A DNA stretch of 38,584 bases. Origin: Anaerolineae bacterium (GTDB lineage: Bacteria > Chloroflexota > Anaerolineae > B4-G1 > SLSP01). Numbering within the stretch: the stretch's first letter is position 1; every line of letters starts with the position of its first letter. The position numbers and the translations under genes are program-made. The stretch is from NCBI GenBank assembly GCA_018055515.1, contig JAGPHL010000001.1, positions 1 through 38,584 of the forward strand, in the 5' to 3' direction. Positions 856 to 31,831 of this stretch are shown piece by piece. Below the pieces are notes generated by a model. The model did no database searches and was not told the DNA's origin. It saw nothing but the letters and a program-made list of their open reading frames with translations.

Positions 856-3800
856 CTACTCCTTCACTTCCAGTTCCACGGCCGCCCGACGCACGCCGAG
901 CGCCAGGCTGAGCTCGCGCAAGGCCCGTTCCAACAGCGATTCTACTTCCATTTCAGCGCGCACCCGTCCAGAGATGGCGCCAGCCAGCTGCTCGCGCGCC
1001 GCCCGCGCCCGAGTGTCTTCCAACAAGCGGGCCACCTCGAGCGCCTGCCCCAACCGTGAACCGATTTCTTCGAGGAGGGGGATCGCATCCGCAGCCAGCT
1101 GCTCCCCCCGCGAGCGAATGTTGAGCACGCCAATGACCTGCTCGCGCACACGGATGGGAAGGGCCAGGGTCGTGACCTCTCCCTCAGTTTCCATGCCGGC
1201 GGGAGATGGCTGCCGGTACACTACGGCGCGCCCCTCGCGCCAGGCCTGTTGCGCTTCGGGAGTGCGCTCGGTCGTCATTTCCAGGTCCACGCCGTCGTAG
1301 CGATACGCCCGCAGGCGCCGGGTGCGAGTGAGGTACTCGCGCCAGGAGTCCACCGTGTACGTTCCAATGGCCGCCTCGAGCTGGCGCACATTGCGGTCCG
1401 CTTCCGCCAGCAAGCGCGCGATCTCCAGCGCATTGGCCAGCTGGTCGGCCAGCGTCTGCAACATCGCCACGTCATCCGAACTAAAGCCCTCGGCAGCAAG
1501 GGTATGGATACATAACGCACCCAGCGTCTTTTCACCACGCACGAGGGGGAGGGCAACCTCGGTCACATGCCCATTCCCCTCCGCCGCCGTCAGCAAAGGA
1601 AGACTGACCTCCTCCGACAGCTGCGCCTCGCGCAAGGCCACGCTGCGCGCGGCCGGGCTCTCCCCCCCCAACAGCAATCGCAAGCCGGCCTGCAGATGCT
1701 CCATCGCGCGCTCGCCCACGGCCGCACGCAACAGCAACCAGTGGTGGGACTGTGGGTCATCCTCCGCGCCGGCTTCCTCTTGCAAAAAGAGCGCCACCCC
1801 CGGATAGCCCAGGCGCTCAGAAATTAAGGCAACGGCCTGCGTCAGCAGCTGCGAAACATCCAAAATCGCCGAGAGAGTACGGGAAATCAACGCCGCTTCC
1901 CGCAATTGCACGGCGCGCCGCTGCGCCTCATCCTCCATAGTCTTCAAGCGGGTCACGTTATAGGAGATGCCCACCAGGCCCATGATCTTGCCAGAAGCGT
2001 CGCGCATCGGGATCTTGGTCGCCAGGAACCAACGCGACTGCCCTTCGCGGTTATACATGTGCTCGAGCCGTTGTACGACCGCGACCCCGTCGCGCACGAC
2101 CCGCAGATCGTCTTCCCAGGCCGCCTGCGCACTCGGTCCCACAAAGAAGTCCAGGTCGGTCTTTCCGACAGCCGCTTCTGGATCCTCCACACCCAACGCC
2201 ATAGCCTGGGCCGGGTTGACGCGGGTAAAGCGCAGCTCGCTATCTTTGAAATACACCGAATCGGGGATGTTGTTGAGCAAAGTGCTCTGCTCTACCTCTT
2301 TGCGGGAAATCGTCTCCAGACGCACGCGGTTCTCCAAAGAGACCGCCGCCTGTCCGGCCAGGTTCAGCAGGACCCGCGTTTCCGAGGTGGAAAACTCGCG
2401 CGCCTTGCGATAAGCGGCCACCAACAGGCCCGTCCACTCGCCGCCAACAACCAACGGCACAAGCGCTAACGCTCCAGCCTTGAACCGCTCGCGGAAGAGC
2501 CGCCGCGTGCTGGTGCTCAGCTGGACATCCGCCGCCAGGTTGGGAATCCACAACGGAGCCTCCGGCCGCACCCTCTGGGCAGCATCCGCCAACGCCAGCA
2601 GGTAATGCGCGTCGAAAGCTTCAGGCGGCACTTCATTCGTCCAGCGCGCCAGCGGTGAGAAAGCCGACGGTGGCGCATCCGGCTGCCAGGGCCGGTCGAA
2701 GCGCTCCAGGCTCACGAAGGCGTCCGCATCCCCCAACGACGTGTAACGGCGCAGTACCTCCAGAATGGCCGCATAATCTGGACTGGCGCTGAGCTCGGCC
2801 GTCGCGCGATACAGCAGGTTCACCTCCTCGGCGTTGCGTTGACTCGCCTCGAACAGGCGGGCGTTCTCCAAAGCCACCGCCAGCTGATCGGCGATGATCA
2901 TCATCAAGGTCACGTCTTCCTCGGAGAAAGCCGCCTCGCGGGAGGACTGCACCGTCAATGCGCCGATGACTTGAGCGCCGCGACGCAGGGGGATGGCCAT
3001 TTCGGAGTGTGTGTCGGGCAACAGCGGGTTATCGAAACGTACCGCTTCGGCGCCAACATCGAGTGCGATGCGAGGACGGCCCTCGGCCACACAAACCCCG
3101 ATCATGGAAGTGCCGCCGACCTCCAGGCGATGGCCGGCCTCCAACATGCGGCGGCCCGCCTCACCGGTGCCCGCGCGCAACACCGCCCACCGTCCCTCTG
3201 CATCGGTGAGGAAAGCGCCCACGTAGTAATAATCGAAGCGCTCACGGATCAGTTCGACCGCGCGTTCGAGCAGTTCCTGCGGCTGCAGCAGCGAAGAAGT
3301 TGCCCGCGCCACCTCGGCCGCCGTCTGCAATTGAACCGCGCGCTGTTGCACTTCCTGGAAAAGGCGATTCGCCTCCAGCGCGTTGGCAACCTGCAGGGCA
3401 ATGGTCTGGAGCAGTTCCTGATCGGAGGGCGTGAAGAGATTCTCAAATTCATAGCTCTCGATCGCCATGACCCCCACGACTTTGTTGGCGGTGATGAGCG
3501 GCACGCCCAGCCACGAGAGCGCCTCGTCGCCTACCAGGCTCAGCCCCTGCGAGACCATGAAAGCGCGGTTTTCCTCCAGGTTGGCCAGATGCAGGGGAGT
3601 GCGATTGCGGATGATGTAGCCGGTCAGCCCCTGTTCCAGCTTGTGCTTGCGGGGCGCCTGCAATTGTCCGTGCGCCATCTGGAACGCCAGCGTCCACTCC
3701 TCACGCCCCTCTTCGTATGTAGCGATGAAGAAATCCTGGGTGTCGAAAAGCCGGCTGACCTGTTCATACGCCTCACGCAAAATGGCATCCAGGTCAGGCG

Positions 3801-4915: not shown

Positions 4916-6334
4916 TTATGCTGCGTCAGGCATCTCTTCAGCGCCAGTGGCAGGAGCGGTTGCGGGAGTCTCACCGGCGGCAGTCACCGGTTCAAGGAAG
5001 ACGGCCACCTCATCGAGATCCAAAATGCGCCCCAAATCCATGATGGCTTGCTGTAGCAACGCATCCACATCAAAGGAACGGCTGAAACGCCCGGAAAGGT
5101 CACCCAACACTTGCTGCCGCTGCGCCTGACGTTGGGTTTCCTCAACGAGGCGCAACGTCTCCAAAGTCTGACCTAGCTGATCCATGACCGACTCCACCAG
5201 CGCCAGGTCCTCCGCCGTCCAGGGGCTGCCATCGGTGCGCCGGGCGCTCAAGGCGCCGATGACCTCGTCGCGCACGGCGATGGGGACGGCAAGCTCGCCT
5301 CCCTCTACCACCGTACGTCGGCCCTGAGTCGCCTTCAGCATGGGCGGATTCCAGGCGGGAGATACTGCCTGGACCTCGCCGCCGCGGGCGTAGAAACCAC
5401 GACGCCCCGACCCAGACTCCAGGAACATCGTCCACGCTTCGCGAAGATAACGCTGCTGCACGGCGCGCAATTCATTCAGGGCAGTAATCAACGTCTCCAC
5501 CGTTCGGTTCAGCCGGCTGCCCAGCGCCAGCAATGCGGGATTCTCGATCCGCTTTGCCAGGTCCTCCATGTCCAGGCGCGCCTCGAAGTCGCCCTCTTCG
5601 ACGCGACTCAAAAAGGTGGTATACTCCTGGACGCTTGCCTGAAGCTGCTCCAGCGTCTCCTGGACCTGTTGGCGGGCCTCAACCTCGGCCTGAGCGGCGG
5701 TCTCGGCGCGTTCCAGGGCCTCAGAGAGCTCCTCACCGCGCCGATAGGCCGAGGCCAAGCTATCCTCGATGAGCCGGACAAAAACGGTCAGCAAGGCCAC
5801 CATACTCCCCAAAGAAAGGAGCATGATGCCGAGCGTCAACACCCGTTCGGCGGATGCAGACAGTGAGTAAGGAATCGCAATGCCACGCCCCTGCAACACC
5901 AGCCACACGGCCATTAGCACTACCACGCCCAGGGTCGAACCCAACGCCGCCCCGGGACCGCTTATCAATGCACTAATGACGATGAGAGGCGCAAAAGCCA
6001 GGGTAATAGGGCCCAGAGGGCCGCCCATGTAGTAACAAAGCGTCAGGAGGGTCAGACCACCGCCAATAAGGTAGGCCCTGGCCCCCCACTCCGTAGCGCC
6101 CCGGCGCAGGAGTCCCTGCACCAGCAACAACACCGCCGCATACCCGGCCAGGGATAGCACCACCGGCAGCGTCGGGAAATCCAGCACCAGGCGCCGGGCC
6201 CAAACGGCAAGCAAGAGCCCCGCTCCTAGCGCGTAGAGGGTCACGCGCGTCACAGCCGCTAACGTCTGGGCCTTGCGCGCCGCCGTCTGTTCCACCACCG
6301 CCGGCAATTTCGTGGGAGCGCCGAGACGTATCAT
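4916..6334 (-). CDS. Minimal array member: polytopic membrane domain, coiled coil and C-terminal W-module/tail, no canonical GAF
   Basis: ATGA overlaps the upstream gene at 6331-6334. The product has 5-6 hydrophobic helices, for example LYALGAGLLLAVWA and VLTLGIMLLSLGSMVALLTVFV. A long coiled coil follows (AETAAQAEVEARQQVQETLEQLQ). Then come the W-module (QRYLREAWTMF..LAVPIAVRDEVIGALSARRTDGSPWTAEDLALVESVMDQLGQTLETLRLVEE) and the tail (QQVLGDLSGRFSRSFDVDALLQQAIMDLGRILDLDEVAVFLEP). Confidence 0.88.
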   Translation of the reverse strand: MIRLGAPTKLPAVVEQTAARKAQTLAAVTRVTLYALGAGLLLAVWARRLVLDFPTLPVVLSLAGYAAVLLLVQGLLRRGATEWGARAYLIGGGLTLLTLCYYMGGPLGPITLAFAPLIVISALISGPGAALGSTLGVVVLMAVWLVLQGRGIAIPYSLSASAERVLTLGIMLLSLGSMVALLTVFVRLIEDSLASAYRRGEELSEALERAETAAQAEVEARQQVQETLEQLQASVQEYTTFLSRVEEGDFEARLDMEDLAKRIENPALLALGSRLNRTVETLITALNELRAVQQRYLREAWTMFLESGSGRRGFYARGGEVQAVSPAWNPPMLKATQGRRTVVEGGELAVPIAVRDEVIGALSARRTDGSPWTAEDLALVESVMDQLGQTLETLRLVEETQRQAQRQQVLGDLSGRFSRSFDVDALLQQAIMDLGRILDLDEVAVFLEPVTAAGETPATAPATGAEEMPDAA

Positions 6335-8574
6335 GCCTCCTCCTCCAACGTGTCAGACCCCTGACCTAGTTGCGCTCGCAGCTCCGCCGCTCCAAGCGCT
6401 TGACTCATGTCGCTCACAGCACGCTGCAACGCCTGTTCCACCGACGCGGCAGCCCGAATGTTGTCCACGATCTGGCGCACCAGGCGTTCGCGTTCGCTCC
6501 GGCGCAGGGTCTCCTCGAAGAGCCGCGCGTTATCCAGGGCCAACGCCGCCTGGGTCGCCAGGGCCTGCACGAGCTCCAATTCCTCCGGCGTCCAGGGGCG
6601 ATCGGCCGGCCGTTCCAATTCCAGCGTCGCCAGCACCTGATCGCGCAAGGTGATTTCTGCAGCAATGCGCTGGCCTTCGGGAGACGCGGGAGCTGCTGCC
6701 GGAGCAAGGGACGTCACCACCCCCTGTCCCTCGTAATGATACGCGAGCGGCGTGCGTCGGCGGCGCTCCGCCCAGGCTCTGCGCGTCTCCTCCCCAAGGG
6801 CGCGTTCCATGCGGGCCAGCGCCTCCTGGCTCTCCCTGAACAGCCGGGCGTTGTCCAATGCCAGCGCCAGCTGCTCCGCCATCGTCTGCAACACCGTCAC
6901 GTCCTCTTGCGTGAACGCCTCCGGCTCCGTGGATTGCACATCCAGGACGCCGATGACCTCACCGCGCGCCCGAAGGGGGAGCCCCATCTCCGAGCGGGTC
7001 TCTGGCAGATCGGGGTTGTTGAACCACACCGCGTCAGCGCCCACATCCAGGGCGATGCGAGGATGACCGGTCGCCAGAACCGCGCCGACAATCCCCACGC
7101 CGGCCTGGAGACGATGACCGCGCGCTAACATGCGCTTTCCACCTTCAGACGAAGCGGCGCGCAATTCGGCGTAGGTGCCATCGGGGCTGGCCACGAAAAT
7201 TCCTGCATGGTAGAAGCCAAAATGCTCCGAAATCAAGTTCACCATGGAGTCAAGCAGCTGTTCCTCGTCGCGGATTGAAGCCACATCACGCGCGACCTCC
7301 GCCGCCGCTTGCAGCTGTTGCGTACGCTTCCTTAAGTCGCGGGTGCGTTCAGCGACGCGCTCCTCCAGGGAGGCCCGCGTTTCTAGCAGCTCGGTATTGC
7401 TCACCCGCAACGCCGCTTCGATGCGGCGACGCCGCGCTGCGCTAAGGGATTGGGCCACGATGGTGACCAGCAACACCAGCCCCACCGCCGATACAGGCCA
7501 GATGATCTCGCCGTATTCCTCCAGGAAAGTGAGAGGGCGGTTGATCACCTCGCTATTCACCGGCAGCGTGCCCATGTCAATGCCAAAACGTTGTAACTGC
7601 CGATAGTCGAACATGTAGCGATTGGGGCTTTCCCACGCAATGGGGACATCGGCCGCCGAGGCCCCCGCCAGAAGCTGCTGGACCTTGAACGCTGCCGCCT
7701 CCCCCTGCAGGAAAGCGCTCGTCAATTTTCCCCCCACCAAACCGCGCCCCAGATAGGAATCCCACAGGCCATAAATCGGCGCCTTGGTATTGGCGTAGAT
7801 CAAGTCAATGGCTTCCTCGTAGGTGTAGAAATGCTGAGCGCGGTCACGGTTGAACAAGACCAGGAAGACCAGGTCGTCTTCGGTCAAAGCGCGCAACGCC
7901 GCTTCCAGCTCGGGCACGTCGGGATTCTCGTAATACACGAAGCTGACGCGATTCGCATAGCTCGCCGCGATCTCGTGAAACAGGCGCGAATACGCCACGC
8001 CTGTCGTCGTGCCGTCGTTGATGACGAGGATCTCGCGCGTCTGCGGGCGCTGCGCCAACGCCACGTCAAGTGTGGCCTTGATGTCTACCGTCATCACCAC
8101 GCCGGTGAAATACGCCCGAAGCCCTCCCAGCATCGTGTCCTCGAAGAGATTGACGCCGCAGAACACCACCGGCACTTCGGGGAAGAGGCGTTCATGGTAC
8201 TCCACCATGAAGTTGAAGGCCTCGTCATCGGTCACGACGATGGCGTCGAGGGGAATGGCGGCATATTTCTGCCGATAGAGTTCGTACAGACGCTCGAAAT
8301 ACGCGGCATCGGGAACGACGCGCTTGGCGTCCATGTATTCCAGGTATAACTCGACCGGCTGAGTCTCCGTATCCAGCACCGACTTGATTCCCTGTACCAG
8401 ATGATCGGTCCAGCTCAATCCCTGGTGATAGGAATTCAACACCAGGACGTTCTTGCGCGGCGCCTCCGTCGCCGTCTGTGCGGCGACGGGCCGATCTGGC
8501 CGAAGCCAGCCCACGCTCAACAAGCACAGCGCCAACAGCACCGCTCGAACCCGGAAACGAGGCTTATCTGCCAT
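6331..8574 (-). CDS. Array sensor: periplasmic-binding-protein-like domain, TM, signalling helix, GAF (FYH subtype), W-module, tail
   Basis: SD AGGAGA lies 7 nt upstream of ATG 8574. The product has an N-terminal signal anchor (AVLLALCLLSVGWL). The PBP-like extracytoplasmic sensor is marked by KNVLVLNSYHQGLSWTD. The TM is IIWPVSAVGLVLLVTIVAQSL and the signalling helix is LEERVAERTRDLRKRTQQL. The GAF reads HFGFYHAGIFV..LRAASSEGGKRML..WFNNPDLPETRSEMGLPL. The W-module is TRRAWAER..WTPEELELVQALATQAALALDNARLF and the tail is ERLVRQIVDNIRAAASVEQALQRAVSDMSQALGAAELRAQL. Confidence 0.9.
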   Translation of the reverse strand: MADKPRFRVRAVLLALCLLSVGWLRPDRPVAAQTATEAPRKNVLVLNSYHQGLSWTDHLVQGIKSVLDTETQPVELYLEYMDAKRVVPDAAYFERLYELYRQKYAAIPLDAIVVTDDEAFNFMVEYHERLFPEVPVVFCGVNLFEDTMLGGLRAYFTGVVMTVDIKATLDVALAQRPQTREILVINDGTTTGVAYSRLFHEIAASYANRVSFVYYENPDVPELEAALRALTEDDLVFLVLFNRDRAQHFYTYEEAIDLIYANTKAPIYGLWDSYLGRGLVGGKLTSAFLQGEAAAFKVQQLLAGASAADVPIAWESPNRYMFDYRQLQRFGIDMGTLPVNSEVINRPLTFLEEYGEIIWPVSAVGLVLLVTIVAQSLSAARRRRIEAALRVSNTELLETRASLEERVAERTRDLRKRTQQLQAAAEVARDVASIRDEEQLLDSMVNLISEHFGFYHAGIFVASPDGTYAELRAASSEGGKRMLARGHRLQAGVGIVGAVLATGHPRIALDVGADAVWFNNPDLPETRSEMGLPLRARGEVIGVLDVQSTEPEAFTQEDVTVLQTMAEQLALALDNARLFRESQEALARMERALGEETRRAWAERRRRTPLAYHYEGQGVVTSLAPAAAPASPEGQRIAAEITLRDQVLATLELERPADRPWTPEELELVQALATQAALALDNARLFEETLRRSERERLVRQIVDNIRAAASVEQALQRAVSDMSQALGAAELRAQLGQGSDTLEEEA

Positions 8575-8662: not shown

Positions 8663-10915
8663 TCACCCCTCTGATTCCACCACTTCGTCCGCTGCCAGCG
8701 GCTTCATGCGAATTGTGCCGGCGGCGCCGAGCACCTCGCCCAGCTCGCGGACGGTCGCCTGCAGCACAGTCTCCACGTCGCGGGAAGCGCGCAGCCGGTT
8801 AGAGATCTCCGCCACCAGCCGTTCGCGGAAAGCGCGGCGTTGCGATTCCTCATACAGCCGGGCGCTTTCCACCGCCACATTCAGCTGGTCTACCAGGGAT
8901 TGCAACAAAGCAATCTCCTCGGCAGTCCAGGTCGTGCCGTCCCGTTTGCGCCCGTCTATCACCCCGATGACCTGATTCCGCACCTGGATGGGGATCGCCA
9001 GCGTCACGCCAGAGTCCCCGGCGGCTATCTGTCCGGTGCGCAAGGCTTCCTGCATTTCTGGGCGCCAGGTCTCGCCGGCCGGGCGCGTCGCCACCCGATC
9101 GCTCACAAATCCCAGGTTGGATGCCGAGAGCAGCAACTGCTGCCACCCTTCGCGGGTCAACTCGCCGTAAGCCCGGCGCTCGGCCTCCAGGCTTGCCTGT
9201 ACCTGCGCAAACAAACGCGCGTTGCTGATGGCAATGGCGACCTGATCTGCCACTGTCTGCATCGTACTGATGTCCTCCGGTTTGAAGGCCGCCACACGCC
9301 GGCTCTGGATGGTCAGTGCGCCAATCACCTCGCCCCGCGCCCGTAACGGCAACGCCATTTCAGAGCGGGTTTCCGGCAAATACGGATTGTCGAAGCGCAC
9401 TGCGGCTTCACCGACGTCAAGCTGAATGTCGGCCTGCCCGGTCTCCACACAGCGGCCAATCATAGATTGGCCTCCTACCTGCAAGCGCCACCCTTGCGCC
9501 AGCATCTGCTGCCCGGCCTCGCCCGTGCCTGCGCGCAGCACCGCATATTCCTTCGCGGCGTCCAGCAGAAACAGCCCGGCGTAATACAGATCAAAACGCT
9601 GCTGCACCAGCTTGACCACTTCAGGCAGCAGCTCATCCAGTTCCACAATCTCAGTAGTGGCCCGCGACACCTCAGCCGCCGCTTCCAGCAAGGCCGCACG
9701 CTCCCGCAACTCGCCGGTGCGCTCCTCGACGCGCTGTTCGAGTAACGCTCGACTTTCCTGCAATTCACTCAAACTGTGGGTCAGCTCCAGTTCAGCGCGC
9801 CGACGGCGCAGGATATTGAGGATCAGCACCACAATCACCGCAGCCAAAATCACAAAGCTCAGGCCAACAATCCCTATCAGCTGCGCATATTGCTCAAAGA
9901 ATGAGAAAGGCTTGTTGAGAATAAAACTATCGGCGGGCAAAGCGGACTCGGGAATGCCCCAGCGCTGTAACTGTGCATAGTCGAACATGTAGCGCGCTGC
10001 CGGCGACTGCACCACCGGAATGTCCTCAGGGGATACACCGCTCAAAACGCGCAAGGCCAGCTGCGCCGCCCGTTCCCCTTCAGTCATGCCGCTGGTCAGC
10101 TTGCCGCCGACGATGCCATATCCCAGGCTGAAATCCCACAGCGCATAAACCGGCGCGGTGCTGTTGGTCGCCACCAGCGGCGAGAAAACATCGTACTCAA
10201 AGAAATTCCCGGCGCTGTCGCGCGAGAAAATCGTCAGCAGCACCAGGCTGTTGTCAGGCAGGCGCCGCAGCTGCTGCAACACGGCCTCCATCGTCATGTC
10301 CTCGAGATAAGTGAAGGTGATGTCGGGATAATCTTTCTCCAGGGCCACCAGCCGCTCATGGACCCGTCGCCCCGTCACAGTCGTGTCGTTCACCACGAAG
10401 ATCTGTCGGGTCTGCGGATGCAGCTTCAGCGCCAGGTCCACCGTCCCCGCCACATCGGCGATCTCACTCACGCCGGTGAAATTCTTGTGACCTGCCAGGC
10501 GGGTCACGTCGAAATAGTTAGCGCCGCAAAAGACCACCGGCACGCCGGGGAAGAGCTCGTTGGCGTATTGAAGCAGGAAGTCCAGCGCGGCATCGTCGGA
10601 AGAGATGATCAAATCGGGCTGTCGTGTGCCATATTTCACGCGGTAGAGCTGCGCCAGCTCCTCCAAATATGCCGGGTCATCTATCCGCTTCAGGTCCATA
10701 TATTCGACCCACAGGTCAATGTCCTCCCCGGCGGAGTTGAGGACGGTCTCGATGCCGCGAGTCACATCATCCGCGAATTTATAACCCCGGTGATAGGAGT
10801 TGAGGTACAACACCTCCCGACGCGGCACAATTTGCGATTGCGACAGAGCTCTGGCAGGTATCCACACCAGGCTGAGCACCATGCCGATGATCGCCAATCT
10901 ATGCAGTAGCTTCAT
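8663..10915 (-). CDS. Array sensor: periplasmic-binding-protein-like domain, TM, signalling helix, GAF (LYY subtype), W-module, tail
   Basis: The ORF-track start at 10957 is a TTG overlapping the upstream stop. I prefer ATG 10915, which has SD GGAGG 6 nt upstream and gives the signal anchor MKLLHRLAIIGMVLSLVWIPARA. The PBP-like sensor is marked by REVLYLNSYHRGYKFADD. The TM is IGIVGLSFVILAAVIVVLILNIL and the signalling helix is LEQRVEERTGELRERAALL. The GAF reads RFDLYYAGLFLLD..LRAGTGEAGQQML..RFDNPYLPETRSEMALPL. The W-module is TREGWQQL..LAIPIQVRNQVIGVIDGRK..WTAEEIALLQSLVDQLNVAVESARLY and the tail is ERLVAEISNRLRASRDVETVLQATVRELGEVLGAAGTIRMKP. Confidence 0.88.
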   Translation of the reverse strand: MKLLHRLAIIGMVLSLVWIPARALSQSQIVPRREVLYLNSYHRGYKFADDVTRGIETVLNSAGEDIDLWVEYMDLKRIDDPAYLEELAQLYRVKYGTRQPDLIISSDDAALDFLLQYANELFPGVPVVFCGANYFDVTRLAGHKNFTGVSEIADVAGTVDLALKLHPQTRQIFVVNDTTVTGRRVHERLVALEKDYPDITFTYLEDMTMEAVLQQLRRLPDNSLVLLTIFSRDSAGNFFEYDVFSPLVATNSTAPVYALWDFSLGYGIVGGKLTSGMTEGERAAQLALRVLSGVSPEDIPVVQSPAARYMFDYAQLQRWGIPESALPADSFILNKPFSFFEQYAQLIGIVGLSFVILAAVIVVLILNILRRRRAELELTHSLSELQESRALLEQRVEERTGELRERAALLEAAAEVSRATTEIVELDELLPEVVKLVQQRFDLYYAGLFLLDAAKEYAVLRAGTGEAGQQMLAQGWRLQVGGQSMIGRCVETGQADIQLDVGEAAVRFDNPYLPETRSEMALPLRARGEVIGALTIQSRRVAAFKPEDISTMQTVADQVAIAISNARLFAQVQASLEAERRAYGELTREGWQQLLLSASNLGFVSDRVATRPAGETWRPEMQEALRTGQIAAGDSGVTLAIPIQVRNQVIGVIDGRKRDGTTWTAEEIALLQSLVDQLNVAVESARLYEESQRRAFRERLVAEISNRLRASRDVETVLQATVRELGEVLGAAGTIRMKPLAADEVVESEG

Positions 10916-10953
10916 CCAATGCCTCCGTCCTCGTCCCACAGCCCAACCAGGCC

Positions 10954-12666
10954 TCAAGCATCCGGTGTCTTGGCATCCGCAGTCGCGCCGGGGACCAGCC
11001 GCACGATCATGTCCTCCAGGTCCAACGCCTGGCGCATCTCTTCAGCCGCCGTGCGCAACATGCGCTCCAGCTCCAACGTCTCGCGGATATGACCGCTCAC
11101 TTCACCGACCAGGCGCTCACGCGCAGCGCGCAGCTGGGTGTCCCGGTACAGCCGTCCACTTTCCAACGCCACACTCAATTGCTCGGCCAGGGTTTGCAAC
11201 AACGCCATTTCCGCCGACGTCCACATCGCGCCGCCGGGCTTGCGGCCGTCAAGGACGCCGATCACCTGATCCCGCACCTTGAGCGGCAGAGCGATCGCGC
11301 TGGGGTCCGTCTCATCCGTGACGATCTGTCCCGTTTGCAATGCTGCCGCCATGCGCGGCTCCCAAACGGCGGCGGGACGGACACCCGTCACATCGCTCAC
11401 ATAAGCCGGCTCCGCCCTCTGCCGTACCAGCTCCTGCCAGGCCTCCCGCGCGCGCGCCGCATACAGATGACGCTCAGCCGTCACACTTTCTTCCAATTGG
11501 CGCAGCAGATCGGCGTTATTGATGGCCACGGCCACTTGATCGGCAATGGCCTGCAGAATGCTGACGTCTTCCCGCGTAAAAGCCTGCGGGGTTTTGCTTT
11601 GCACATCCAAAGCGCCCAGGACTTTATTGCGCACGCGCAAGGGCAACGCGATCTCGGAGCGCGTTTCCGGCAGGTCGGGGTTGTTGAAGAAAGCGGCATC
11701 CTGCCCTACATCCTGGGCGATCCGCACCTCGCCGCGCGCTACAGCGGCCCCTACGATGCCCTCCGTCCCAATGGAGAGACGATGACCGCGCGCCATCATC
11801 CGCTTTCCCCCCTCGCTGGACGCCGCCCGGAGCACAGCCCAGGTCTCCGTGGAATCCACGAGAAAGATTCCGGTGTGATAAAAAGCGAATTGCTCACTGA
11901 TAATGTCCGTCACCCGCATCAACAACGATTGAGTGTCCTGCCGCACCGCCGCCATGGCTGCCGCGATGGCGGTCGTAGCGCCCAGGTAACTCGTCCGGCG
12001 CCCCAACTCGTCGGTGCGTTGGGCGACCAAAGCCTCGAGCTGCTCACGGCGCGTCTCCAATTCCAGGTTGGATTGACGCACACGAGTCAGAGATCCACGC
12101 AATTCCCGCAATGTCTGGTCCAGAGGCCCCACGATGAGCAACAGGCTCATCGTCAACACGGCCCAGGTAGAGATGTCCGAGATAAAAAAGACCTGAGGCA
12201 AGGATCCCCCCAACGCTCGGAAGACAGCCACTCCCAAATAAGCCACACTGCTGAGCACCGACACGATCAGCGCGGCCCCAACCCCCAATAACAGCCCGGC
12301 GATCGCTACCAGGCTCGCGCTGACAGCGACAAAGGGGTTGCCGTTCGTGCTCACGACGCCGGCTCCGGTAACGATAAGCCAAAATGTCGCCACCAACAAC
12401 AGATTGCCTTCGCGCACCCGGCCCTTTTGCAACAACAGTTTGCAGGCCAGCGCCACTAGAAACAAAAGCCCAAACGCGATGCAGGAGGCCACTTTTGCCG
12501 TAAAAAACAGGAGCGCCATGCACACGCCAAAAACGATCGCCACGAACATTCCCCCCAGCAGGGAATTCAACAGGCGGGCAACCCGCGTTTTCTCCTCATC
12601 GTCCTCAAAGACAGGCGCGGCCAGGAATGCTTTCAGCCGGTCCTTAAACCCCTTGTGCTCGCTCAT
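10954..12666 (-). CDS. Array sensor: polytopic membrane domain, coiled coil, GAF (FYH subtype), W-module, tail
   Basis: ATGA overlaps the upstream gene at 12663-12666. The product has about 6 hydrophobic helices. The coiled coil is RREQLEALVAQRTDELGRRTSYL. The GAF reads QFAFYHTGIFLVD..LRAASSEGGKRMM..FFNNPDLPETRSEIALPL. The W-module is AREAWQEL..IALPLKVRDQVIGVLDGRK..WTSAEMALLQTLAEQLSVALESGRLY and the tail is ERLVGEVSGHIRETLELERMLRTAAEEMRQALDLEDMIVRLVP. Confidence 0.9.
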   Translation of the reverse strand: MSEHKGFKDRLKAFLAAPVFEDDEEKTRVARLLNSLLGGMFVAIVFGVCMALLFFTAKVASCIAFGLLFLVALACKLLLQKGRVREGNLLLVATFWLIVTGAGVVSTNGNPFVAVSASLVAIAGLLLGVGAALIVSVLSSVAYLGVAVFRALGGSLPQVFFISDISTWAVLTMSLLLIVGPLDQTLRELRGSLTRVRQSNLELETRREQLEALVAQRTDELGRRTSYLGATTAIAAAMAAVRQDTQSLLMRVTDIISEQFAFYHTGIFLVDSTETWAVLRAASSEGGKRMMARGHRLSIGTEGIVGAAVARGEVRIAQDVGQDAAFFNNPDLPETRSEIALPLRVRNKVLGALDVQSKTPQAFTREDVSILQAIADQVAVAINNADLLRQLEESVTAERHLYAARAREAWQELVRQRAEPAYVSDVTGVRPAAVWEPRMAAALQTGQIVTDETDPSAIALPLKVRDQVIGVLDGRKPGGAMWTSAEMALLQTLAEQLSVALESGRLYRDTQLRAARERLVGEVSGHIRETLELERMLRTAAEEMRQALDLEDMIVRLVPGATADAKTPDA

Positions 12667-15071
12667 TCCGCTGTCTCCTGTGTTTCAGGCACCCCCAGGT
12701 GCACGACCAGGCGTTCCAGGCCCAGTCGCGCGCGCAATTCTTCAGCCGCAATGCGCAGCATCCGTTCCAGATCCAACGTCTCACGGATGCGTGCGGTGAT
12801 CTCGCCGACCAGACGTTCCTGCTGCGCCCGGCTTTGGCTTTCCTGATACAGGCGCGCGCTTTCCAAAGCCATGCTCAGCTGCTCGGTGATGGAAGCCACT
12901 ACCGCCAATTCCTCCGGCCCCCAGGCAGCCGCGTCCTGCGGCTTGCGCAGCCGCACCAGGCCTACAAGTTGCTCGCGAATTTGCAGGGGCAGGGCCACCG
13001 TCAGCGGGTCCTCGTGAATGGGCTGCGCGAAGGAAATCCCCGCGGACGCCAGCGGCGACGCTTCCAGGGGATGCACTCCCGCAGGATCACACCGATAGCC
13101 ACGTTCCGCACGCGCGCGCAGCGTCTCCAGCCACGCCTGTTGAGTCAAATCGCCATAGGCGCGACGCTCCGCTTCAAGCGCTTCTTGCGCCTGGGTAAAG
13201 AGCCGGGCATTATCAAGCGCCACCGCCACCTGATCCGCCATGATCTGCAAGACGGCAATAGCGCTCTCGTCGAAAGCCGCCGGCTGGTCGCTCTGCACGG
13301 AGATGGCCCCCAGCACCCGTCCACGCGAGCGCAGCGGCAGTGCCGCCTCCGAGCGCGTGTCCGGCAATTCCGACGTCGCCAGGCGCACCGCGTCTACCCC
13401 CACTTCCAGGGCGATACGCGGTTGGGCATGAGCGATACTCCAGCCAATCATGCCTTCGCCAATGCGAATGCGGTGCTGCCGGGCCAACATGCGGCGTCCG
13501 GCCTCACCCGTACCGGCGCGCAAGATCGCCCACTCGTGCGCGTCATCCGCCAAAAACAGGCCGACGTAATACAGGTTAAAGCTCTCCCGAATGAGCTCCA
13601 CGACCTGGTCCAACAGCAGTTCCACATCCAAAATCTGGTTCACGACGCGCGCTACCTCTGCCGTACCGGCGAGGTAGGTAGAACGGCGCGTCAGATCGCG
13701 GGTGCGTTCGGCGACCTGCGTCTCAAGGGACGCGATCAAGTCACGCAACCGCGTCGTCATTTGATTGAAGGACTGAGCCAGCATCCCCGCCTCATCCTGC
13801 CGGCGCACGTCCACCTGCAATTCCAGCTTGCCCGCGGCGATTTCCTGCGCCGCGACCGCCAGGCGGTTGATAGGGCCGGCGATAGATCGCGCCAGCAAGA
13901 TGCTAAGGCCAATCACCACCAACAAAATCAATGCGCCGACGCCGGCAAGCGTGCGCAACATATCGGTGCGACCGCTGCCCAGCACTTCCTGGTACGCCAG
14001 GATCTCATCCTCATAAGCGGTGATGCCGATGAGCCAGTTCCACGGCTCATAATAGACAAAGCGGCTGATGCGAACGTAGGGTCGCTCTTCATCAGGAGTC
14101 TGCCAGCGGTAGGACAGGGTGCCGATCTCACCCGGCTGTAACGCGAGTCCGGCATCAATGAGCTCCCGCGCGATGTAGCGTCCATCAGGATTAGGAGTAT
14201 CCCACATGTTGACCCCATCCAGTTGTCCCCCCTCAGAAACGATGTAAACGCCCCGCTCCTCGCCTGCCGCTCCCAACACGAAAGCGTAGCCGGAATCGCC
14301 GACCCTGGTATTCAAAATAGCCTGACGCAACGACTCCACGGCCTCACGCTTGACACCCACGTAGAGCATCCCAATGAGATTTCCCAATTCATCATAGATC
14401 GGTTCATAGGCCGCCAGGTACCAATCGCCGAACACATAGACGCTGCCACGGTAAGTCTCGCCGCGCAACACCGCCGCAATGACAGGGTCAGAAGCGCCAT
14501 CAGGGCTGACGGCGGGGATATACGTGCCGATCGCGCGGCGCCCATCCGGGGTCAAGACGTTGGTCGCTACGCGAAGCATGTCTCCCGCATCATTGATCCG
14601 CTGAAAAATGGCCGCCGTGCCACCCACCAGGTCTACAATGTCATCTACGACGGGGGTACGAACTTCAGGATTGGCGTTTTCGCCCAGCCACTCCCCGCCG
14701 ACCAACATCTGCGGCAGCCGCACGGGCACGGCCTGAAGTGTGTACTGATTGACCGCTGTCCAGGCTGTTGTCCTTTCTGTAGAGAACTCCGCCGACCCCG
14801 CCTGTTCCAGAACATACCGCGCCGTGTTCAGATTCGCGTTGACTTGTCGCTGCACCGTCTCATCTTGCGCGCGCACCATGTTATAGATGCCCAACACAAT
14901 ATCGCCCAGGTCATTCAAAGCCAGCCTGGCGGCCTCCTGGTCCACCCGCTGGCTGAACACACCGCTTTGCCAGGAAGCGATGCTCCACAAGGCCAGCGCC
15001 ATGATGAGCGCCCCTCCCACGCTCAGCAGGCCGATCTTGGCACCGATCCGCAAGTCACGCCAATTGGACAT
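12663..15071 (-). CDS. Array sensor: tandem Cache extracytoplasmic domain, TM, HAMP, GAF (LYY subtype), W-module, tail
   Basis: SD AAGGAG lies 7 nt upstream of ATG 15071. The first TM is IGLLSVGGALIMALALWSIA. Two Cache-type blocks follow: GTAAIFQRINDAGDMLRVATNV..YVFGDWYLAAYEPIYDELGNLIGMLYVGVKRE and DSGYAFVLG..YYEPWNWLIGITAYEDE. A second TM precedes the HAMP (IAGPINRLAVAAQEIAAGKLELQVDVRRQDEAGMLAQSFNQM). The signalling helix is LETQVAERTRDLTRRSTYL. The GAF reads SFNLYYVGLFLAD..LRAGTGEAGRRML. The W-module begins TQQAWLET and the tail is ERLVGEITARIRETLDLERMLRIAAEELRARLGLERLVVHLG. Confidence 0.9.
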   Translation of the reverse strand: MSNWRDLRIGAKIGLLSVGGALIMALALWSIASWQSGVFSQRVDQEAARLALNDLGDIVLGIYNMVRAQDETVQRQVNANLNTARYVLEQAGSAEFSTERTTAWTAVNQYTLQAVPVRLPQMLVGGEWLGENANPEVRTPVVDDIVDLVGGTAAIFQRINDAGDMLRVATNVLTPDGRRAIGTYIPAVSPDGASDPVIAAVLRGETYRGSVYVFGDWYLAAYEPIYDELGNLIGMLYVGVKREAVESLRQAILNTRVGDSGYAFVLGAAGEERGVYIVSEGGQLDGVNMWDTPNPDGRYIARELIDAGLALQPGEIGTLSYRWQTPDEERPYVRISRFVYYEPWNWLIGITAYEDEILAYQEVLGSGRTDMLRTLAGVGALILLVVIGLSILLARSIAGPINRLAVAAQEIAAGKLELQVDVRRQDEAGMLAQSFNQMTTRLRDLIASLETQVAERTRDLTRRSTYLAGTAEVARVVNQILDVELLLDQVVELIRESFNLYYVGLFLADDAHEWAILRAGTGEAGRRMLARQHRIRIGEGMIGWSIAHAQPRIALEVGVDAVRLATSELPDTRSEAALPLRSRGRVLGAISVQSDQPAAFDESAIAVLQIMADQVAVALDNARLFTQAQEALEAERRAYGDLTQQAWLETLRARAERGYRCDPAGVHPLEASPLASAGISFAQPIHEDPLTVALPLQIREQLVGLVRLRKPQDAAAWGPEELAVVASITEQLSMALESARLYQESQSRAQQERLVGEITARIRETLDLERMLRIAAEELRARLGLERLVVHLGVPETQETAE

Positions 15072-15126: not shown

Positions 15127-16989
15127 TCACGCATCTTGCTGAGCTCCTGAGGCGCCGGTGATCCATTCGGGCCCCATGTAGACTTCCGCGGCCTCTAATG
15201 CCAGGGCGCGCTGCAATTCCTGCGCCGCCGTGCGCAAGATGGTGTCCACATCCAACGTGCTGCGGATGTGAGCAGTGATGTCTCCCAACAAGCGCTCGTT
15301 GGCGGCCCGGCGGCGGGTGTCCTCATACAGCCGGGCGCTTTCCAGCGTCACACCCAACCGCTCGGCCAGGACGTTGACCAGGTTCAACTCCTGCGAAGTC
15401 CAGGCGCCCCGCGCCTCAGGCTTGCTGAGACGCACCACGCCAATCACGGCATCGCGCGACTTGAGCGGCACCGCCAGGTTTTGCGCGTCCAGCTGCACGG
15501 GGTTGCCTGAACGCATTGCCTGCGCCATGTCCGGCTGCCAATCCGCCTCCAAATTCAGGATTCGACCATCGGACAACCCGACAAAACCGCGTTTTTCGCG
15601 CCCCATCTGCTCCCAGGCAGCGCGGGTCGCCACCCCCGACGCCGCGCGCAACGCCTCCAACGCCGATTGGGTCTCGGCGTACAACCGCGCGTTGTCAATC
15701 GTCACCGCGAGCTGATCGGCCATTACCTGCAAGACCGCCACCGCTGACTCATCGAAAGCGTTGAACTTGTCGTCCTGCACCGTCAGAGCGCCGATGACCT
15801 GGCCACGCGACCGCAACGGGATCGCCGCTTCGGAGCGCGTCTCCGGCAGCTCTGGGGTGATTTTGCGGACGGCGTCAGAAGCAGCTTGTGCGGCGATACG
15901 CGCCTCCGAATTGGCAACCGCCCAGCCAATCATGCCCTCGCCGACACGCAACCGATGTCCGCGCGCCAACATGATGCGCCCGGCCTCCCCGGTGCCCGCC
16001 CGCAACACGGCCCACTCGCCGCTCGCATCCACCAGAAACAGGCCCACGTAATACAGCTGAAAGCGCTCGCGGATGATTTCCACCGACTGCGTGAGCAGCT
16101 GCTCCACATCCAAAATCGCGGTCGCGGCGCGGCTCACGTCGGCCGCCGCGAGCAGGTAGGCCGAGCGCCGTTCCAAATCGCGAGTACGGTCGGCGACGCG
16201 CGCCTCGAGGTCCGCATACGAGGCAGCCAGCTCACTGGCCATGCGGTTGAAGGTCTGCGCCAGGACGCTCAGCTCATCCCTCCCGGCTACCGGAACCGTG
16301 GCGTGCAGGTCCCCCCGCGCAAAGGCCTCCGCCCCGGCCCGTAGCTCAGCCACCGGACGCGACAAACTGCGTTCGACCGCCAGGGCCAAAAGACCGGAGA
16401 TCAGCAACGCTGCGGCCACAACGCCGATGATCAGAAAGAGCCGCCGTTGCGATTGCGCCACCAATTCCGCGCTCGAGACAGTCAGCTGTTGATGACTCTG
16501 GGCCACGATGCGCTCGATCTGCACGCCGATGTCATTCCCCAGGCGCTGAGATTGGAATTCCAGCGAGGCCACGCGCGAAACATCCCCGCTCGCCCGCGCG
16601 GCCTGGATTTCCTGAATCAACGTCGCGTACTGCTGTAAATTGTCCCGGAGCTGGCGAATCTGCTGCTGCGTCGGGTCCTCCAGCAAGGCTTGCGCCTGGG
16701 CGAGATATTCCAGAGCCCGCGCCACATCATCGGCGGCCTCATAGGGCGCGGGGACGGCGTCGCGGAGATACCGCAGCAGGTTGGCGCGGGAGGAAGCCAC
16801 GCGCACCGCCGCGCTCAACAACAGACGCTCCGCCTGCGCGTTCACCTCGACCACTTGTTGCAGTTGGGCATTGAGGCTGTTATGATCGAAGATAAACACC
16901 GGCAGCAAAATCACCACCAGCAGGATCAACGCCACAAGACTACCAAAGATCCGCGGGCGGACCGAAAAGCGGCGCAGAAAATTAGTCAT
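15127..16989 (-). CDS. Array sensor: helical (4-helix-bundle-like) periplasmic domain, TM, HAMP, GAF (LYY subtype), W-module, tail
   Basis: SD GAGGA lies upstream of ATG 16989. The first TM is IFGSLVALILLVVILLPVFIF. An all-helical extracytoplasmic stretch of about 150 aa follows, then a second TM (LFLIIGVVAAALLISGLLALAV). The HAMP is LSRPVAELRAGAEAFARGDLHATVPVAGRDELSVLAQTFNRM. The GAF reads RFQLYYVGLFLVD..LRAGTGEAGRIML. The W-module is TRAAWEQM..LAVPLKSRDAVIGVVRLSK..WTSQELNLVNVLAERLGVTLESARLY and the tail is ERLLGDITAHIRSTLDVDTILRTAAQELQRALALEAAEVYMGP. Confidence 0.9.
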   Translation of the reverse strand: MTNFLRRFSVRPRIFGSLVALILLVVILLPVFIFDHNSLNAQLQQVVEVNAQAERLLLSAAVRVASSRANLLRYLRDAVPAPYEAADDVARALEYLAQAQALLEDPTQQQIRQLRDNLQQYATLIQEIQAARASGDVSRVASLEFQSQRLGNDIGVQIERIVAQSHQQLTVSSAELVAQSQRRLFLIIGVVAAALLISGLLALAVERSLSRPVAELRAGAEAFARGDLHATVPVAGRDELSVLAQTFNRMASELAASYADLEARVADRTRDLERRSAYLLAAADVSRAATAILDVEQLLTQSVEIIRERFQLYYVGLFLVDASGEWAVLRAGTGEAGRIMLARGHRLRVGEGMIGWAVANSEARIAAQAASDAVRKITPELPETRSEAAIPLRSRGQVIGALTVQDDKFNAFDESAVAVLQVMADQLAVTIDNARLYAETQSALEALRAASGVATRAAWEQMGREKRGFVGLSDGRILNLEADWQPDMAQAMRSGNPVQLDAQNLAVPLKSRDAVIGVVRLSKPEARGAWTSQELNLVNVLAERLGVTLESARLYEDTRRRAANERLLGDITAHIRSTLDVDTILRTAAQELQRALALEAAEVYMGPEWITGASGAQQDA

Positions 16990-16997
16990 ACTTCCAT

Positions 16998-17051
16998 CCT
17001 CAACACCTACTTAGACCTCAACACCTACTTAGACCTCAACGCCTACTTAGA
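16998..17051. repeat. Tandem repeat, 3 x 18 nt (cctcaacacctacttaga; third copy has one a->g change)
   Basis: I read it directly from the sequence. The copies lie at 16998-17015, 17016-17033 and 17034-17051. The block fills the spacer between the SBP gene stop (17043-17045, inside copy 3) and the next start (16989). On the coding strand each unit reads TCTAAGTAGGTGTTGAGG, which contains stop codons plus SD-like AGGTG/GAGG. Confidence 0.95.
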
Positions 17052-18065
17052 CGTTGCCGCTTCCCAGATGGCGTTCGTATAGACCTCTTCGGGCGGCACC
17101 GTAGCCTCCAAAACGCCATACCGTTGCAAGGTATCCACGACCCGCAACACGTCGGCGCGGTCCGTATACCCCACCGGGCGGATTTCGGACACTTTGACCA
17201 GTAAGGAGATCTCCCGCATCATGGCGAGCTGATGTTCCAGCGTCTGCATTCCGCTGAGGTCGTACTTCAACACAATCTCAGCCGCCTCGTTGGGATTGGC
17301 GATGGCGTATTCCCACCCGCGTAAGGAAGCGCGCACCATCCGCACGCACAGATCCGGATCCTGTTCCACCAGCGCCTTGGACGTGAAAAGCGTGTCCCCC
17401 GGAAAATCCAGACCGTAATCTGCATAGTCAATAACATTCAGCTCATTGACTGCTACGCCGCTTTCCAACACGGTGTGATACTCGTTGTAACTCATCGCCG
17501 AGGCCACATCCAACTCGCGGGAAAGGAAGGCGTCCATGCTGAACCCCTGCGAGACGAGGGTGTATTGGTCAGAGGCGATCCCCTGCTGCGCCATCAACGC
17601 GCGGAACTGCGCCTCCCAGCTTCCCAACCACACCCCCACCCGTTTGCCCACAAAATCAGCCGGCTCTTGAATCCCCGAATCACGGAAGGCCAGCAACAGC
17701 AGCCCATTCTTCTGTTGGATCTGCGCAATGCTGATGAGCGGTTGCCCCTGCTGGACCGCCACCGCCAGATCGGCGAGCATGGTGACGCCAAAATCAGCTG
17801 TGCCGCTCCCCACCGCCGTCACAGGAGAAATATCTGGCCCCCCGGGTCGAATGGTCACATCCAATCCTTCTTCGGTATACCAACCCTTGTCCAGAGCCAC
17901 ATAATAGCCCGCGAACTGAGCCTGCGAGAACCACAGCAGTTGCAAGGTCACCGGACGGGGCAGCTCTACCTTCGCGGCCGGCTGCCCGGTCGCCGTGCAA
18001 GCGCTCAACCATCCCAGCGCCAGGATGGCCAGCATCCCCTGTCTGAAAAGCGCCGTATGTTTCAT
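17043..18065 (-). CDS. Lipoprotein, ABC-type substrate-binding protein of the NMT1/THI5 (NitT/TauT-like) family, orphan
   Basis: SD GGGAGGA lies upstream of ATG 18065. The lipoprotein signal MKHTALFRQGMLAILALGWLSAC carries a lipobox (LSAC). The family pattern is TLQLLWFSQAQFAGYYVALDKGWYTEEGLDVTIRPGG..GTADFGV. No permease or ATPase genes are present anywhere in the window. Confidence 0.85.
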   Translation of the reverse strand: MKHTALFRQGMLAILALGWLSACTATGQPAAKVELPRPVTLQLLWFSQAQFAGYYVALDKGWYTEEGLDVTIRPGGPDISPVTAVGSGTADFGVTMLADLAVAVQQGQPLISIAQIQQKNGLLLLAFRDSGIQEPADFVGKRVGVWLGSWEAQFRALMAQQGIASDQYTLVSQGFSMDAFLSRELDVASAMSYNEYHTVLESGVAVNELNVIDYADYGLDFPGDTLFTSKALVEQDPDLCVRMVRASLRGWEYAIANPNEAAEIVLKYDLSGMQTLEHQLAMMREISLLVKVSEIRPVGYTDRADVLRVVDTLQRYGVLEATVPPEEVYTNAIWEAATSK

Positions 18066-31051: not shown

Positions 31052-31458
31052 ACCTCCTCACCCGCTAAAATCCGGCGAACCTGCTCAGGGAAGCGGTCGG
31101 GATCCAGAGGCTTGCCAATAAAACCATCGAAACCCACCTGCCGGGCACGGTCCACAAAAGGCTGGGCGGTGTTGGCAGTGACCGCTACAATGGGCACATT
31201 CTTGAGCTGGGGATGAGCGCGTAAGGAGGCCAACGACTCGAAGCCGTCAGCATCGGGGAGCATCAAATCCATCAAAATGAGGTCAATTTCCCCCAGGGTC
31301 TCGGCGAACTCCAGCACTTTCCAACCAGAGGCTTTCCATTCGCATTTTTTGACCCCCAGGAAAGCCAGCAAGCGCGTCATCAGCAGGAAATTGTTGAAGT
31401 TATCCTCGACGATCAGGATAACCGCGTCCCATGGTTGTTTGGGCTTACCCTTCATCAT
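31036..31458 (-). CDS. Single-domain (CheY-like) response regulator, no output domain
   Basis: I trimmed the ORF track 31036..31560 to ATG 31458 (or 31455). This start is MMKGKPKQPWDAVILIVEDN, preceded by GGAGAG, and overlaps the upstream gene's 3-prime end by 14 nt. Receiver hallmarks are IVEDN, DLILMDLMLPDADG, VAVTAN and GKPLD. Confidence 0.88.
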   Translation of the reverse strand: MMKGKPKQPWDAVILIVEDNFNNFLLMTRLLAFLGVKKCEWKASGWKVLEFAETLGEIDLILMDLMLPDADGFESLASLRAHPQLKNVPIVAVTANTAQPFVDRARQVGFDGFIGKPLDPDRFPEQVRRILAGEEVWEPE

Positions 31459-31831
31459 AACTCTCCAGGTGCAGGAAACGTGCGATTTGCTCAGGCAGCA
31501 AGTCCACATCAATGGGTTTGGGGATATAACCGCTACAGCCCGCCGCCAGAGTTTTCTCACGGTCCCCGTGCATGACGTTGGCCGTCATGGCCACAATAGG
31601 CACCTGGCGCAGTTCAGGGATCTCCCGCAGGCGCCGCGTCAACGCATACCCGTCCATCTCCGGCAGATTCATGTCCACCAGAATGAGATCGGGAATCTCA
31701 CGCTGTGCAACCTCAAGACCCTGAAAAGCGTTGGCTGCCTCGATGACGGTGTATCCCTCAATCATGAGAATGCGGCGCACCAACAAACGATTGTCCGGGT
31801 TATCTTCCACATACAGAATCTTTGCGCCCAT
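31445..31831 (-). CDS. Single-domain (CheY-like) response regulator, no output domain
   Basis: I trimmed the ORF track 31445..31888 (TTG start) to ATG 31831 (MGAKILYVEDNPDN, SD GAGAGGGA upstream). A TGGTATAAT extended -10 sits at 31889-31897. ATG 31855 is a possible alternative start. Receiver hallmarks are YVEDN, DLILVDMNLPEMDG, VAMTAN and PKPID. Confidence 0.85.
   Translation of the reverse strand: MGAKILYVEDNPDNRLLVRRILMIEGYTVIEAANAFQGLEVAQREIPDLILVDMNLPEMDGYALTRRLREIPELRQVPIVAMTANVMHGDREKTLAAGCSGYIPKPIDVDLLPEQIARFLHLESYDEG

Follow-up and report, generated by a model that had tools for sequence, protein, structure and literature searches.

In proteins that carry successive GAF domains, or a GAF domain followed by a PHY domain, such as PDE2A, PDE5A and PDE6, CyaB2, the phytochromes and Cph2, the chain crosses each junction through β4, β5 and α5 of one domain, a long connecting helix, and α1 of the next. 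The ligand pocket of canonical GAF domains lies between β1 and β4, and a full GAF domain of the phytochrome or cyanobacteriochrome type binds bilin. Here we describe the C-terminal ends of a family of sensor proteins encoded in a stretch of 38,584 nucleotides from an Anaerolineae bacterium (contig JAGPHL010000001.1; this whole stretch is called the window). These ends show the same order of elements as the tandem-GAF junctions, but the second GAF domain halts after β1, and the protein ends 3–35 residues later. We propose that this GAF start, referred to as the tail, is a self-contained element behind a complete small domain (the W-module), where it may serve as a contact surface.

The genes, named g13 to g1, form a minus-strand run from position 28160 to 856. 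They are tightly packed and co-directional, and in several cases the stop codon overlaps the start of the gene that follows (ATGA junctions in the list of open reading frames, ORFs). Twelve sensor-type genes are complete in the window, encoding 420–1372 residues, and each ends in the tail. The original prediction, made from the same DNA, had placed the tail in all 13 complete members; the tail is confirmed, while the number of complete members is 12. The higher count is probably explained by a thirteenth sensor gene that starts at about position 850 and runs off the window edge (window 1–850, minus strand), encoding an N-terminus with several transmembrane segments, after which a full GAF domain begins. 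In L001, the closest related locus (98% identity), which probably comes from this same genome or from one very near to it, the g1 homologue is followed by an ORF that ends in the tail.

The last 215 residues of the 12 proteins can be aligned to one another. Ten of them contain a helix with a W motif, in exactly the ten versions quoted earlier, and its tryptophan (W15) is invariant across the 37 sequences of alignment A1. A block common to all 12 follows (LAxPIxVRxQVIGV...WTxEE..LL..L..QL..ALESARLY), and then the 48-residue tail, again in 12 of 12, with the consensus (Q)RRAxRERLxxEIxxRIRxxLDxExxLxxAxxELxxxLGxxxxxVxL. Between the tail and the C-terminus lies a short acidic or proline-rich stub of 3–25 residues. 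It had been described as 5–25 mostly acidic residues; its acidity is borne out by 533 tail-terminated sequences pooled from the loci and homologues described below and from the window (437 with a complete W-module), in which the stub is net negative in 82%, has a median length of 13 residues and is rich in E, G, P, D and S, while the range in the window begins at 3. The other regions listed in the original prediction correspond to the C-terminal ends of the remaining 11 genes. The region at 8663–9190 (minus strand), comprising the last 174 residues and the stop codon of the 764-residue ORF of g4, served as the reference, and its features are as follows (residue numbers in models and couplings are those of the module, that is, W-module plus tail).

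8663..10957, minus strand: g4, a 764-residue sensor (ORF list, translation, Pfam); order: signal/transmembrane segment, ABC_sub_bind-like periplasmic domain, transmembrane segment, coiled linker, full GAF domain (residues 419–587), W-module, tail; no output domain.
8843..9187, minus strand: W-module of g4 (residues 591–705), predicted to be compact and GAF-like, with α1, short β1–β3, one short helix, β4–β5 and α5 (AlphaFold2, Foldseek, couplings).
9125..9184, minus strand: W-helix of g4 (AERRAYGELTREGWQQLLLS), predicted α1 of the small C-terminal GAF-like domain (AlphaFold2 helix 2–21, W15, couplings 3-113 and 8-110 to α5).
8843..9013, minus strand: the "half-GAF" block of g4, β4-β5-α5 (SGVTLAIPIQVRNQVIGVID...ESARLYEES) (Pfam GAF profile 88–133, hhalign).
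8699..8842, minus strand: tail of g4 (residues 706–753) (hhalign, PDB matches, AlphaFold2 helices 89–134 and 138–153, couplings).
8786–8842, minus strand: connector helix of the tail, continuous with α5.
8729–8776, minus strand: second helix of the tail, α1′.
8699–8725, minus strand: strand-like segment of the tail.
8666..8698, minus strand: stub, acidic and probably disordered (LAADEVVESEG); the stop codon is at 8663–8665.

The relationship of both parts to GAF domains was examined by profile comparison with hhalign, using the window's 14 full GAF domains as the reference profile. Module residues 59–115 align with full-GAF columns 112–169, that is, β4-β5-α5 (probability 98.7%, E 2.8e-16), and this half-GAF block, proposed earlier, is present in 12 of 12 proteins. 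Residues 1–58 gave no match to the full-GAF profile. The Pfam GAF models behave in the same way, matching this region only at profile positions 88/91–133 of 133 (β4-β5-α5); for the W-module alone, no whole-model match was obtained, PF01590 reaching 28.6 bits over positions 88–133 and PF13185 and PF13492 remaining below the cut-off. The tail (residues 116–163) aligns with GAF columns 1–46, which comprise the connector helix, α1 and β1 (probability 86%, E 5e-6). A profile search of the PDB leads to the same assignment. The tail matches the extreme N-termini of solved GAF domains of the phytochrome or cyanobacteriochrome type with independent E-values (i-E) of 4.6e-7 to 3.2e-6; the matches comprise 8w26 (residues 10–54, i-E 4.6e-7), 6oap, 6bhn (3–42), 2lb5, 8k9o, 6ozb, 3oov and 3e0y. 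The earlier suggestion that the tail is the opening helix and first strand of a GAF domain is thus upheld, and at the level of sequence profiles the tail is a homologue of the connector helix, α1 and β1 that open these domains. It has both this profile-level homology and the same local α1–β1 contacts (see below).

With the g4 module as a phmmer query, alignments cross the GAF-to-GAF junctions in g1 and g9. They also cover an internal W-module of the g9 protein (residues 592–724; window 19077–19475), which has a YIREAW motif and is followed by a complete GAF domain instead of a tail. Here the W-module-to-GAF junction occurs naturally in an "untruncated" form.

Searched against Pfam at E-values up to 10, the tail alone gave only a chance coiled-coil match. 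NCBIfam returned generic matches to parts of GAF domains, far below the cut-offs, and neither Pfam nor NCBIfam gave a model for the tail or the W-module in its own right. We also considered whether the tail hairpin mimics a DHp/HisKA domain, given the resemblance of RIRESLD to HELRTPL. This candidate was rejected, as the histidine is not conserved and HisKA is not matched at E-values up to 10. An H-box-like histidine in the tail motif xHIRxxL occurs only in g5 (GHIRE, about 11080–11095) and g7 (AHIRS, about 15255–15270); the position is R, N, Q, L or F in the other ten window tails, and histidine is also absent from the family consensus.

Structure prediction with AlphaFold2 (AF2) was carried out for the g4 module (37-sequence alignment; mean predicted local distance difference test score, pLDDT, 83.7; predicted template modelling score, pTM, 0.61) and for the g6 module, which carries a canonical tail (65 sequences; pLDDT 88.9; pTM 0.69). 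The two models show the same order of elements. In g4 these are the W-helix 2–21, strands 27–29 and 34–36, helix 43–51, a hairpin of strands 62–69 and 72–80, a long helix 89–134 and a second helix 138–153. In g6 they are the W-helix 2–21, strands 27–30 and 33–36, helix 41–44, strand 53–56, a hairpin of strands 59–66 and 69–77, a long helix 87–131 and a second helix 136–151. In both models α5 and the connector form one continuous helix directed away from the core. Residues 151–160 of the g6 model, covering the end of α1′ and the greater part of the strand-like segment, reach a pLDDT of 92 but lack a sheet partner. The leading Foldseek matches listed are all GAF/PHY or tandem-GAF chains, with weak scores. 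For the g6 model, about 91–95 residues superpose on phytochrome GAF-PHY, PDE5, CyaB2 and Cph2 chains (root-mean-square deviation about 2.5–3.1 Å for the best hits), and from the aligned length we infer that the superposed segment is the junction from β4 to α1′ of a tandem-GAF protein. Taken together, the predictions make the W-module a minimal but complete GAF-like domain, with the W-helix as α1 and a β1 of its own, and the tail resembles a helical hairpin that stands by itself, prolonging α5 and ending in an extended segment.

The contacts within the module were then derived from coevolution, using mean-field direct coupling analysis (DCA) of the 437 sequences with a complete W-module (effective number of sequences, Meff, 380 at 80% identity) and the top 100 couplings at a separation of at least 6. 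The analysis recovers the β4–β5 hairpin (65-77, 63-80), β1 beside β5 (29-80, 25-80, 34-80) and the W-helix against α5 (3-113, 8-110). The couplings 29-80, 25-80, 3-113 and 8-110 agree with the W-module being a small GAF-like fold with its own α1 and β1; together with 65-77 and the order of elements in the AF2 models they fit the GAF fold, to which the Foldseek matches are weak. By class, 43 of the top 100 couplings are internal to the W-module, 52 are internal to the tail and 5 join the connector helix to the W-module. None joins α1′ or the strand-like segment to the W-module, the first such pair appearing at rank 101 (z 3.0). Within these 100, the covariation that packing of α1′ and the strand on the W-module would entail is absent, their couplings being tail-internal only.

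As a control, the same analysis was applied to 1380 genuine full GAF domains of the same loci. These show strong couplings of α1 and β1 to α5, β5 and β2 (for example 29-155, z 11.7). In six depth-matched replicates (subsamples of 420, Meff about 405), 18–30 of the top 100 couplings join α1/β1 to the core, the first at rank 1–4. By this comparison the tail is not docked on the W-module, be it within one chain or by a homomeric swap, and the same absence of couplings disfavours homomeric donation of the tail in trans onto the W-module. The couplings within the tail (146-158, 150-157/158/159, 142-156/160, 140-163, 136-164 and 137-156) describe a terminal segment that lies antiparallel to α1′ and reaches back as far as the connector helix end. 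The pairs 146-158, 150-158 and 142-160 correspond to the α1–β1 pairs 30-42, 34-42 and 26-44 of GAF domains (offset +116), and the tail thus retains the local geometry of a GAF start. An ordinary complete domain followed by a simple linker helix, the outcome named earlier as contrary to the original prediction, describes these ends only in part: the domain appears complete, and a linker helix alone does not account for the tail. Two strong couplings, 5-92 (z 4.4) and 154-162 (z 5.9–6.1), do not fit the secondary-structure layout of the monomer (profile numbering; g4 nucleotides about 8702–9175). Contacts between chains may account for them, as may alignment effects or indels near column 160.

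The tail and its stop codon are retained widely. About 110 metagenomic homologues keep both, the few named ones being metagenome-assembled genomes (MAGs) of Anaerolineae or Chloroflexi; a third homologue search gave a single named match, from Anaerolineae. A scan of species-representative genomes with an 8-sequence alignment as query yielded 68 loci, all in Anaerolineae, Thermoflexales or Chloroflexota MAGs, with 409 tail-terminated ORFs, as many as 10 of them in 20 kb, against 27 non-terminal hits of the tail hidden Markov model (HMM). In a representative library of 1.84 billion proteins, the module profile matches 13,378 proteins at E < 1e-30, in up to 21 stretches per protein, including every GAF-to-GAF junction of giant multi-GAF proteins. 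Among the best 150 representatives, 33 terminate in α5 plus tail, and the preceding domain is a W-module, an ordinary GAF domain or another GAF variant. About one fifth of these 150 have no output domain and the same orphan tail at the end, and the giant multi-GAF representatives (among P0095–P0244) reach 3,952 residues with about 20 GAF-junction matches. Short "proteins" of 89–120 residues among the matches were considered as real mini-proteins and, on reading the sequences, judged to be gene calls from internal methionine codons.

Over more than 500 sequences, the tail ranks with the most conserved segments of the module, contrary to the possibility, raised with the original prediction, that it is not conserved elsewhere. 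All complete C-termini examined, from the window, the homologues and the tail-terminated representatives, stop 3–35 residues past the strand, and none stops directly after α5. From its retention in the metagenomic homologues, the genome loci and the representative library, the combination of tail and stop is evidently not due to chance.

In the window, the tails lie at the following positions, with i-E values for the tail HMM. This model was built without g10, and the value for g10 therefore refers to a sequence outside the training set.

868..1011, minus strand: tail of g1 (1372 residues; multi-GAF, PAS), i-E 4.5e-15.
4991..5134, minus strand: tail of g2 (472 residues; W-module only, no full GAF domain), i-E 3.4e-19.
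6364..6507, minus strand: tail of g3, i-E 1.5e-16.
10993..11136, minus strand: tail of g5, i-E 4.9e-22.
12693..12836, minus strand: tail of g6 (Cache-HAMP-GAF sensor; second AF2 target), i-E 6.6e-21.
15172..15315, minus strand: tail of g7, i-E 1.2e-22.
18126..18269, minus strand: tail of g9, i-E 4.4e-20.
21315..21458, minus strand: tail of g10 (soluble GAF-GAF-tail protein; preceded by a complete GAF domain), i-E 2.2e-9, Pfam.
22562..22705, minus strand: tail of g11, i-E 3.9e-20.
24529..24672, minus strand: tail of g12 (MASE11-GAF-W-module), i-E 4.9e-18, Pfam.
26211..26354, minus strand: divergent tail of g13 (MASE11-GAF-GAF-tail), from the alignment; i-E only 0.16.

Hence the tail stands not only behind W-modules, being found behind a complete GAF domain in g10, g13 and many library representatives. 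The N-terminal inputs of the 12 sensors vary (ABC_sub_bind, Cache_3-Cache_2, TarH, Peripla_BP, PAS and MASE11 in Pfam) and are followed by HAMP and/or at least one full GAF domain, with the exception of g2, which has the W-module only. An enzymatic output domain is absent from all 12 proteins, whose Pfam matches are limited to input domains, HAMP, PAS and GAF. None of the 12 carries the HisKA plus HATPase_c pair of a sensor histidine kinase; in Pfam only g14, next to the array, has both. The neighbouring genes that belong to this arrangement are the following.

28616..31051, minus strand: g14, a HAMP-GAF-HisKA-HATPase histidine kinase immediately upstream of the array, without a tail (Pfam, synteny).
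31036..31560, minus strand: g15, a single-domain receiver upstream of g14 (Pfam Response_reg, synteny).
17043..18065, minus strand: an NMT1-like (NMT1/THI5-like) periplasmic binding protein without a GAF domain, inside the array (Pfam).

A similar, operon-like organization is seen elsewhere. In each of the 68 loci, the genes that end in the tail share one orientation and take up the locus. Where the start of the array is visible, a histidine kinase lies upstream (L012, L018, L023, L032, L047, L051, L053 and L057), with receiver genes upstream of the kinase in L018, L023 and L053; L026 has receivers and no kinase hit. The window order, g15-g14-g13 to g1, with at least 13 sensors, corresponds to the receiver-kinase-array order of these loci, and homologues of the NMT1-like gene lie inside the arrays of 16 related loci.

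We propose that the tail is a self-contained, conserved C-terminal GAF-start element, that the W-module before it is complete, and that the hairpin caps the sensor dimer as a likely contact surface; we give this explanation a probability of roughly 0.55. The tail would prolong α5 of the last GAF-like domain into a single helix of about 45 residues, after which the chain would turn back as α1′. The short extended segment would then run antiparallel on α1′ to the end of the connector helix, with the acidic or proline-rich, probably disordered stub last. In a genuine GAF domain, the connector helix and α1 are buried by α5 and the sheet, and the tail lacks these partners. Due to this loss, the exposed face of the hairpin is most likely buried by the same element of a second chain. 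Two such tails could form a small bundle of helices, perhaps with their strands paired as well, capping the dimeric helical spine. Since the sensors have no enzymatic output and the arrays lie directly behind one kinase and receiver(s), this cap is the most plausible surface for sensor–sensor or sensor–kinase contact, and these enzyme-less sensors offer no candidate output surface other than the orphan GAF start.

Several observations weigh against this proposal. For the W-module, Foldseek gives only weak E-values (best 8.5e-4, template modelling score TMq at most 0.56), and DSSP assigns no strand to the terminal segment in the g4 or g6 monomer model. The tail-internal couplings are compatible with contacts within one chain or between chains, and DCA of a single family is blind to contacts with a different protein. 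Kinase synteny suggests functional linkage of sensors and kinase, not that the tail mediates it. The results above show the homology, autonomy and conservation of the tail, its lack of docking on the W-module, and the synteny; dimerization, any contact with a partner and signaling through the cap are what we infer.

A bolder extension is that the tail acts as a docking or output module, joining the dozen or more kinase-less sensors to each other and to the single HAMP-GAF kinase by helix/strand complementation or a mixed helical bundle. We regard this as speculative. If true, it would represent a chemoreceptor-array-like two-component machine, with many sensors and one kinase, specific to Anaerolineae/Thermoflexales. 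A related alternative is that α1′ and β1′ are donated to another protein, either an array paralogue or the HAMP-GAF kinase, wiring the sensors into one heteromeric complex. The tail is incomplete alone and highly conserved across the 12 paralogues, arrays of up to 10 sensors stand behind one kinase in many genomes, and contacts with another protein are outside the reach of the coupling analysis. Nevertheless, no acceptor was found: the GAF domain of g14 and all full GAF domains have their own α1 and β1, the W-module has its own β1, and couplings to W-modules within the family are not seen. Such donation therefore appears unlikely.

Less probable still is that the tail is a relic of a lost C-terminal GAF domain, with a passive role such as capping α5 and none in signaling or oligomerization. 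Its sequence is indeed indistinguishable from a GAF start, and its profile matches every GAF-to-GAF junction in the giant multi-GAF proteins. However, a relic would hardly be expected to show some of the strongest conservation in the module or to maintain coevolving α1–β1 contacts, and the uniform stop past the strand, never right after α5, is also at odds with it.

The original prediction offered, as one option, a circularly permuted GAF domain, in which the tail folds back and gives α1 and β1 to the W-module. The order of elements is compatible with this, and GAF profiles match the W-module in its C-terminal third alone. Against it, matched genuine GAF domains place 18–30 of the top 100 couplings where α1′/strand and the W-module have none, the β1 slot beside β5 is filled by residues 25–34, the continuous α5-connector helix points off the core in the AF2 models without strand pairing, and complete GAF domains also precede the tail. 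We consider this permutation highly improbable, and that part of the original prediction is not supported. Finally, truncated genes, pseudogenes, or read-through or recoding into a full GAF domain can be dismissed, as nothing but the odd look of a domain cut after 45 residues speaks for them, while the stop position is conserved in the 409 ORFs of the 68 loci, several stops overlap the next start, and the downstream sequence is a new N-terminus with transmembrane segments in another frame.

Some further features of the window may be mentioned. The N-termini of g12 and g13 (24451–28160) match a recently defined membrane sensor domain, MASE11 (PF20969 in Pfam), and the truncated thirteenth gene looks similar to them by eye. 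The listed GTG start of g1 (4974) gives a 59-nucleotide overlap with the end of g2 (4916–4974), compared with 4 nucleotides (ATGA) for other neighbors; the true start is probably further downstream. Upstream of the receiver, the region 32113–37563 (minus strand) reads by eye as three subunits of a molybdoenzyme of the xanthine-dehydrogenase/CO-dehydrogenase type and a nucleobase-type permease. These putative genes appear to be unrelated to the sensor array.

GAF domains are among the commonest sensory domains, and the tail is an autonomous terminal GAF fragment outside the Pfam and NCBIfam models matched. It divides the label "GAF domain-containing protein", setting apart a recognizable class of sensors without enzymatic output. 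Arrays of these sensors behind one kinase in many Chloroflexota genomes pose the question of how output-less sensors signal; if the tail is an interface, it would be a new way of feeding many inputs into one two-component pathway. In the literature on circularly permuted GAF domains we found engineered biosensors only and came across no report of a GAF domain permuted or split in nature, and the titles and abstracts retrieved on output-less GAF sensors in Chloroflexi held nothing relevant. The new part is the conserved orphan GAF-start end-piece on output-less sensors, within a conserved array of many sensors and one kinase.

Compared with canonical GAF domains (PF01590, PF13185, PF13492), the W-module is similar in its predicted α/β fold, with α1 and α5 on one face, in the β1–β5 contact and the β4–β5 hairpin seen in the couplings, and in a C-terminal third that matches the profiles. 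It differs in length (about 115 against about 150 residues), in its first 58 residues, which have no GAF match, in lacking a whole-domain Pfam hit, in the invariant tryptophan of α1, and in the much shorter segments between β1 and β4. The tail, in turn, carries the same signature as the N-termini of phytochrome and cyanobacteriochrome GAF domains (8w26, 6oap, 6bhn, 2lb5, 8k9o and 6ozb), namely RERL..I...IR.SLD.E.IL.T.V.E.R..L..DRV.V. In contrast to those, which continue into a full GAF domain, nothing further follows here, and the couplings of α1′ and the strand are only internal.

At the level of the whole array, the likeness is to RetS-GacS, in which accessory sensors act via a partner histidine kinase, and to chemoreceptor arrays, which feed one CheA. 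The logic in common would be that of many sensors with diverse inputs, here co-encoded with a single kinase. Unlike in those systems, the window sensors carry no DHp, CA, MCP-signal or CheW-like domain, and the only C-terminal element common to them is the orphan GAF start.

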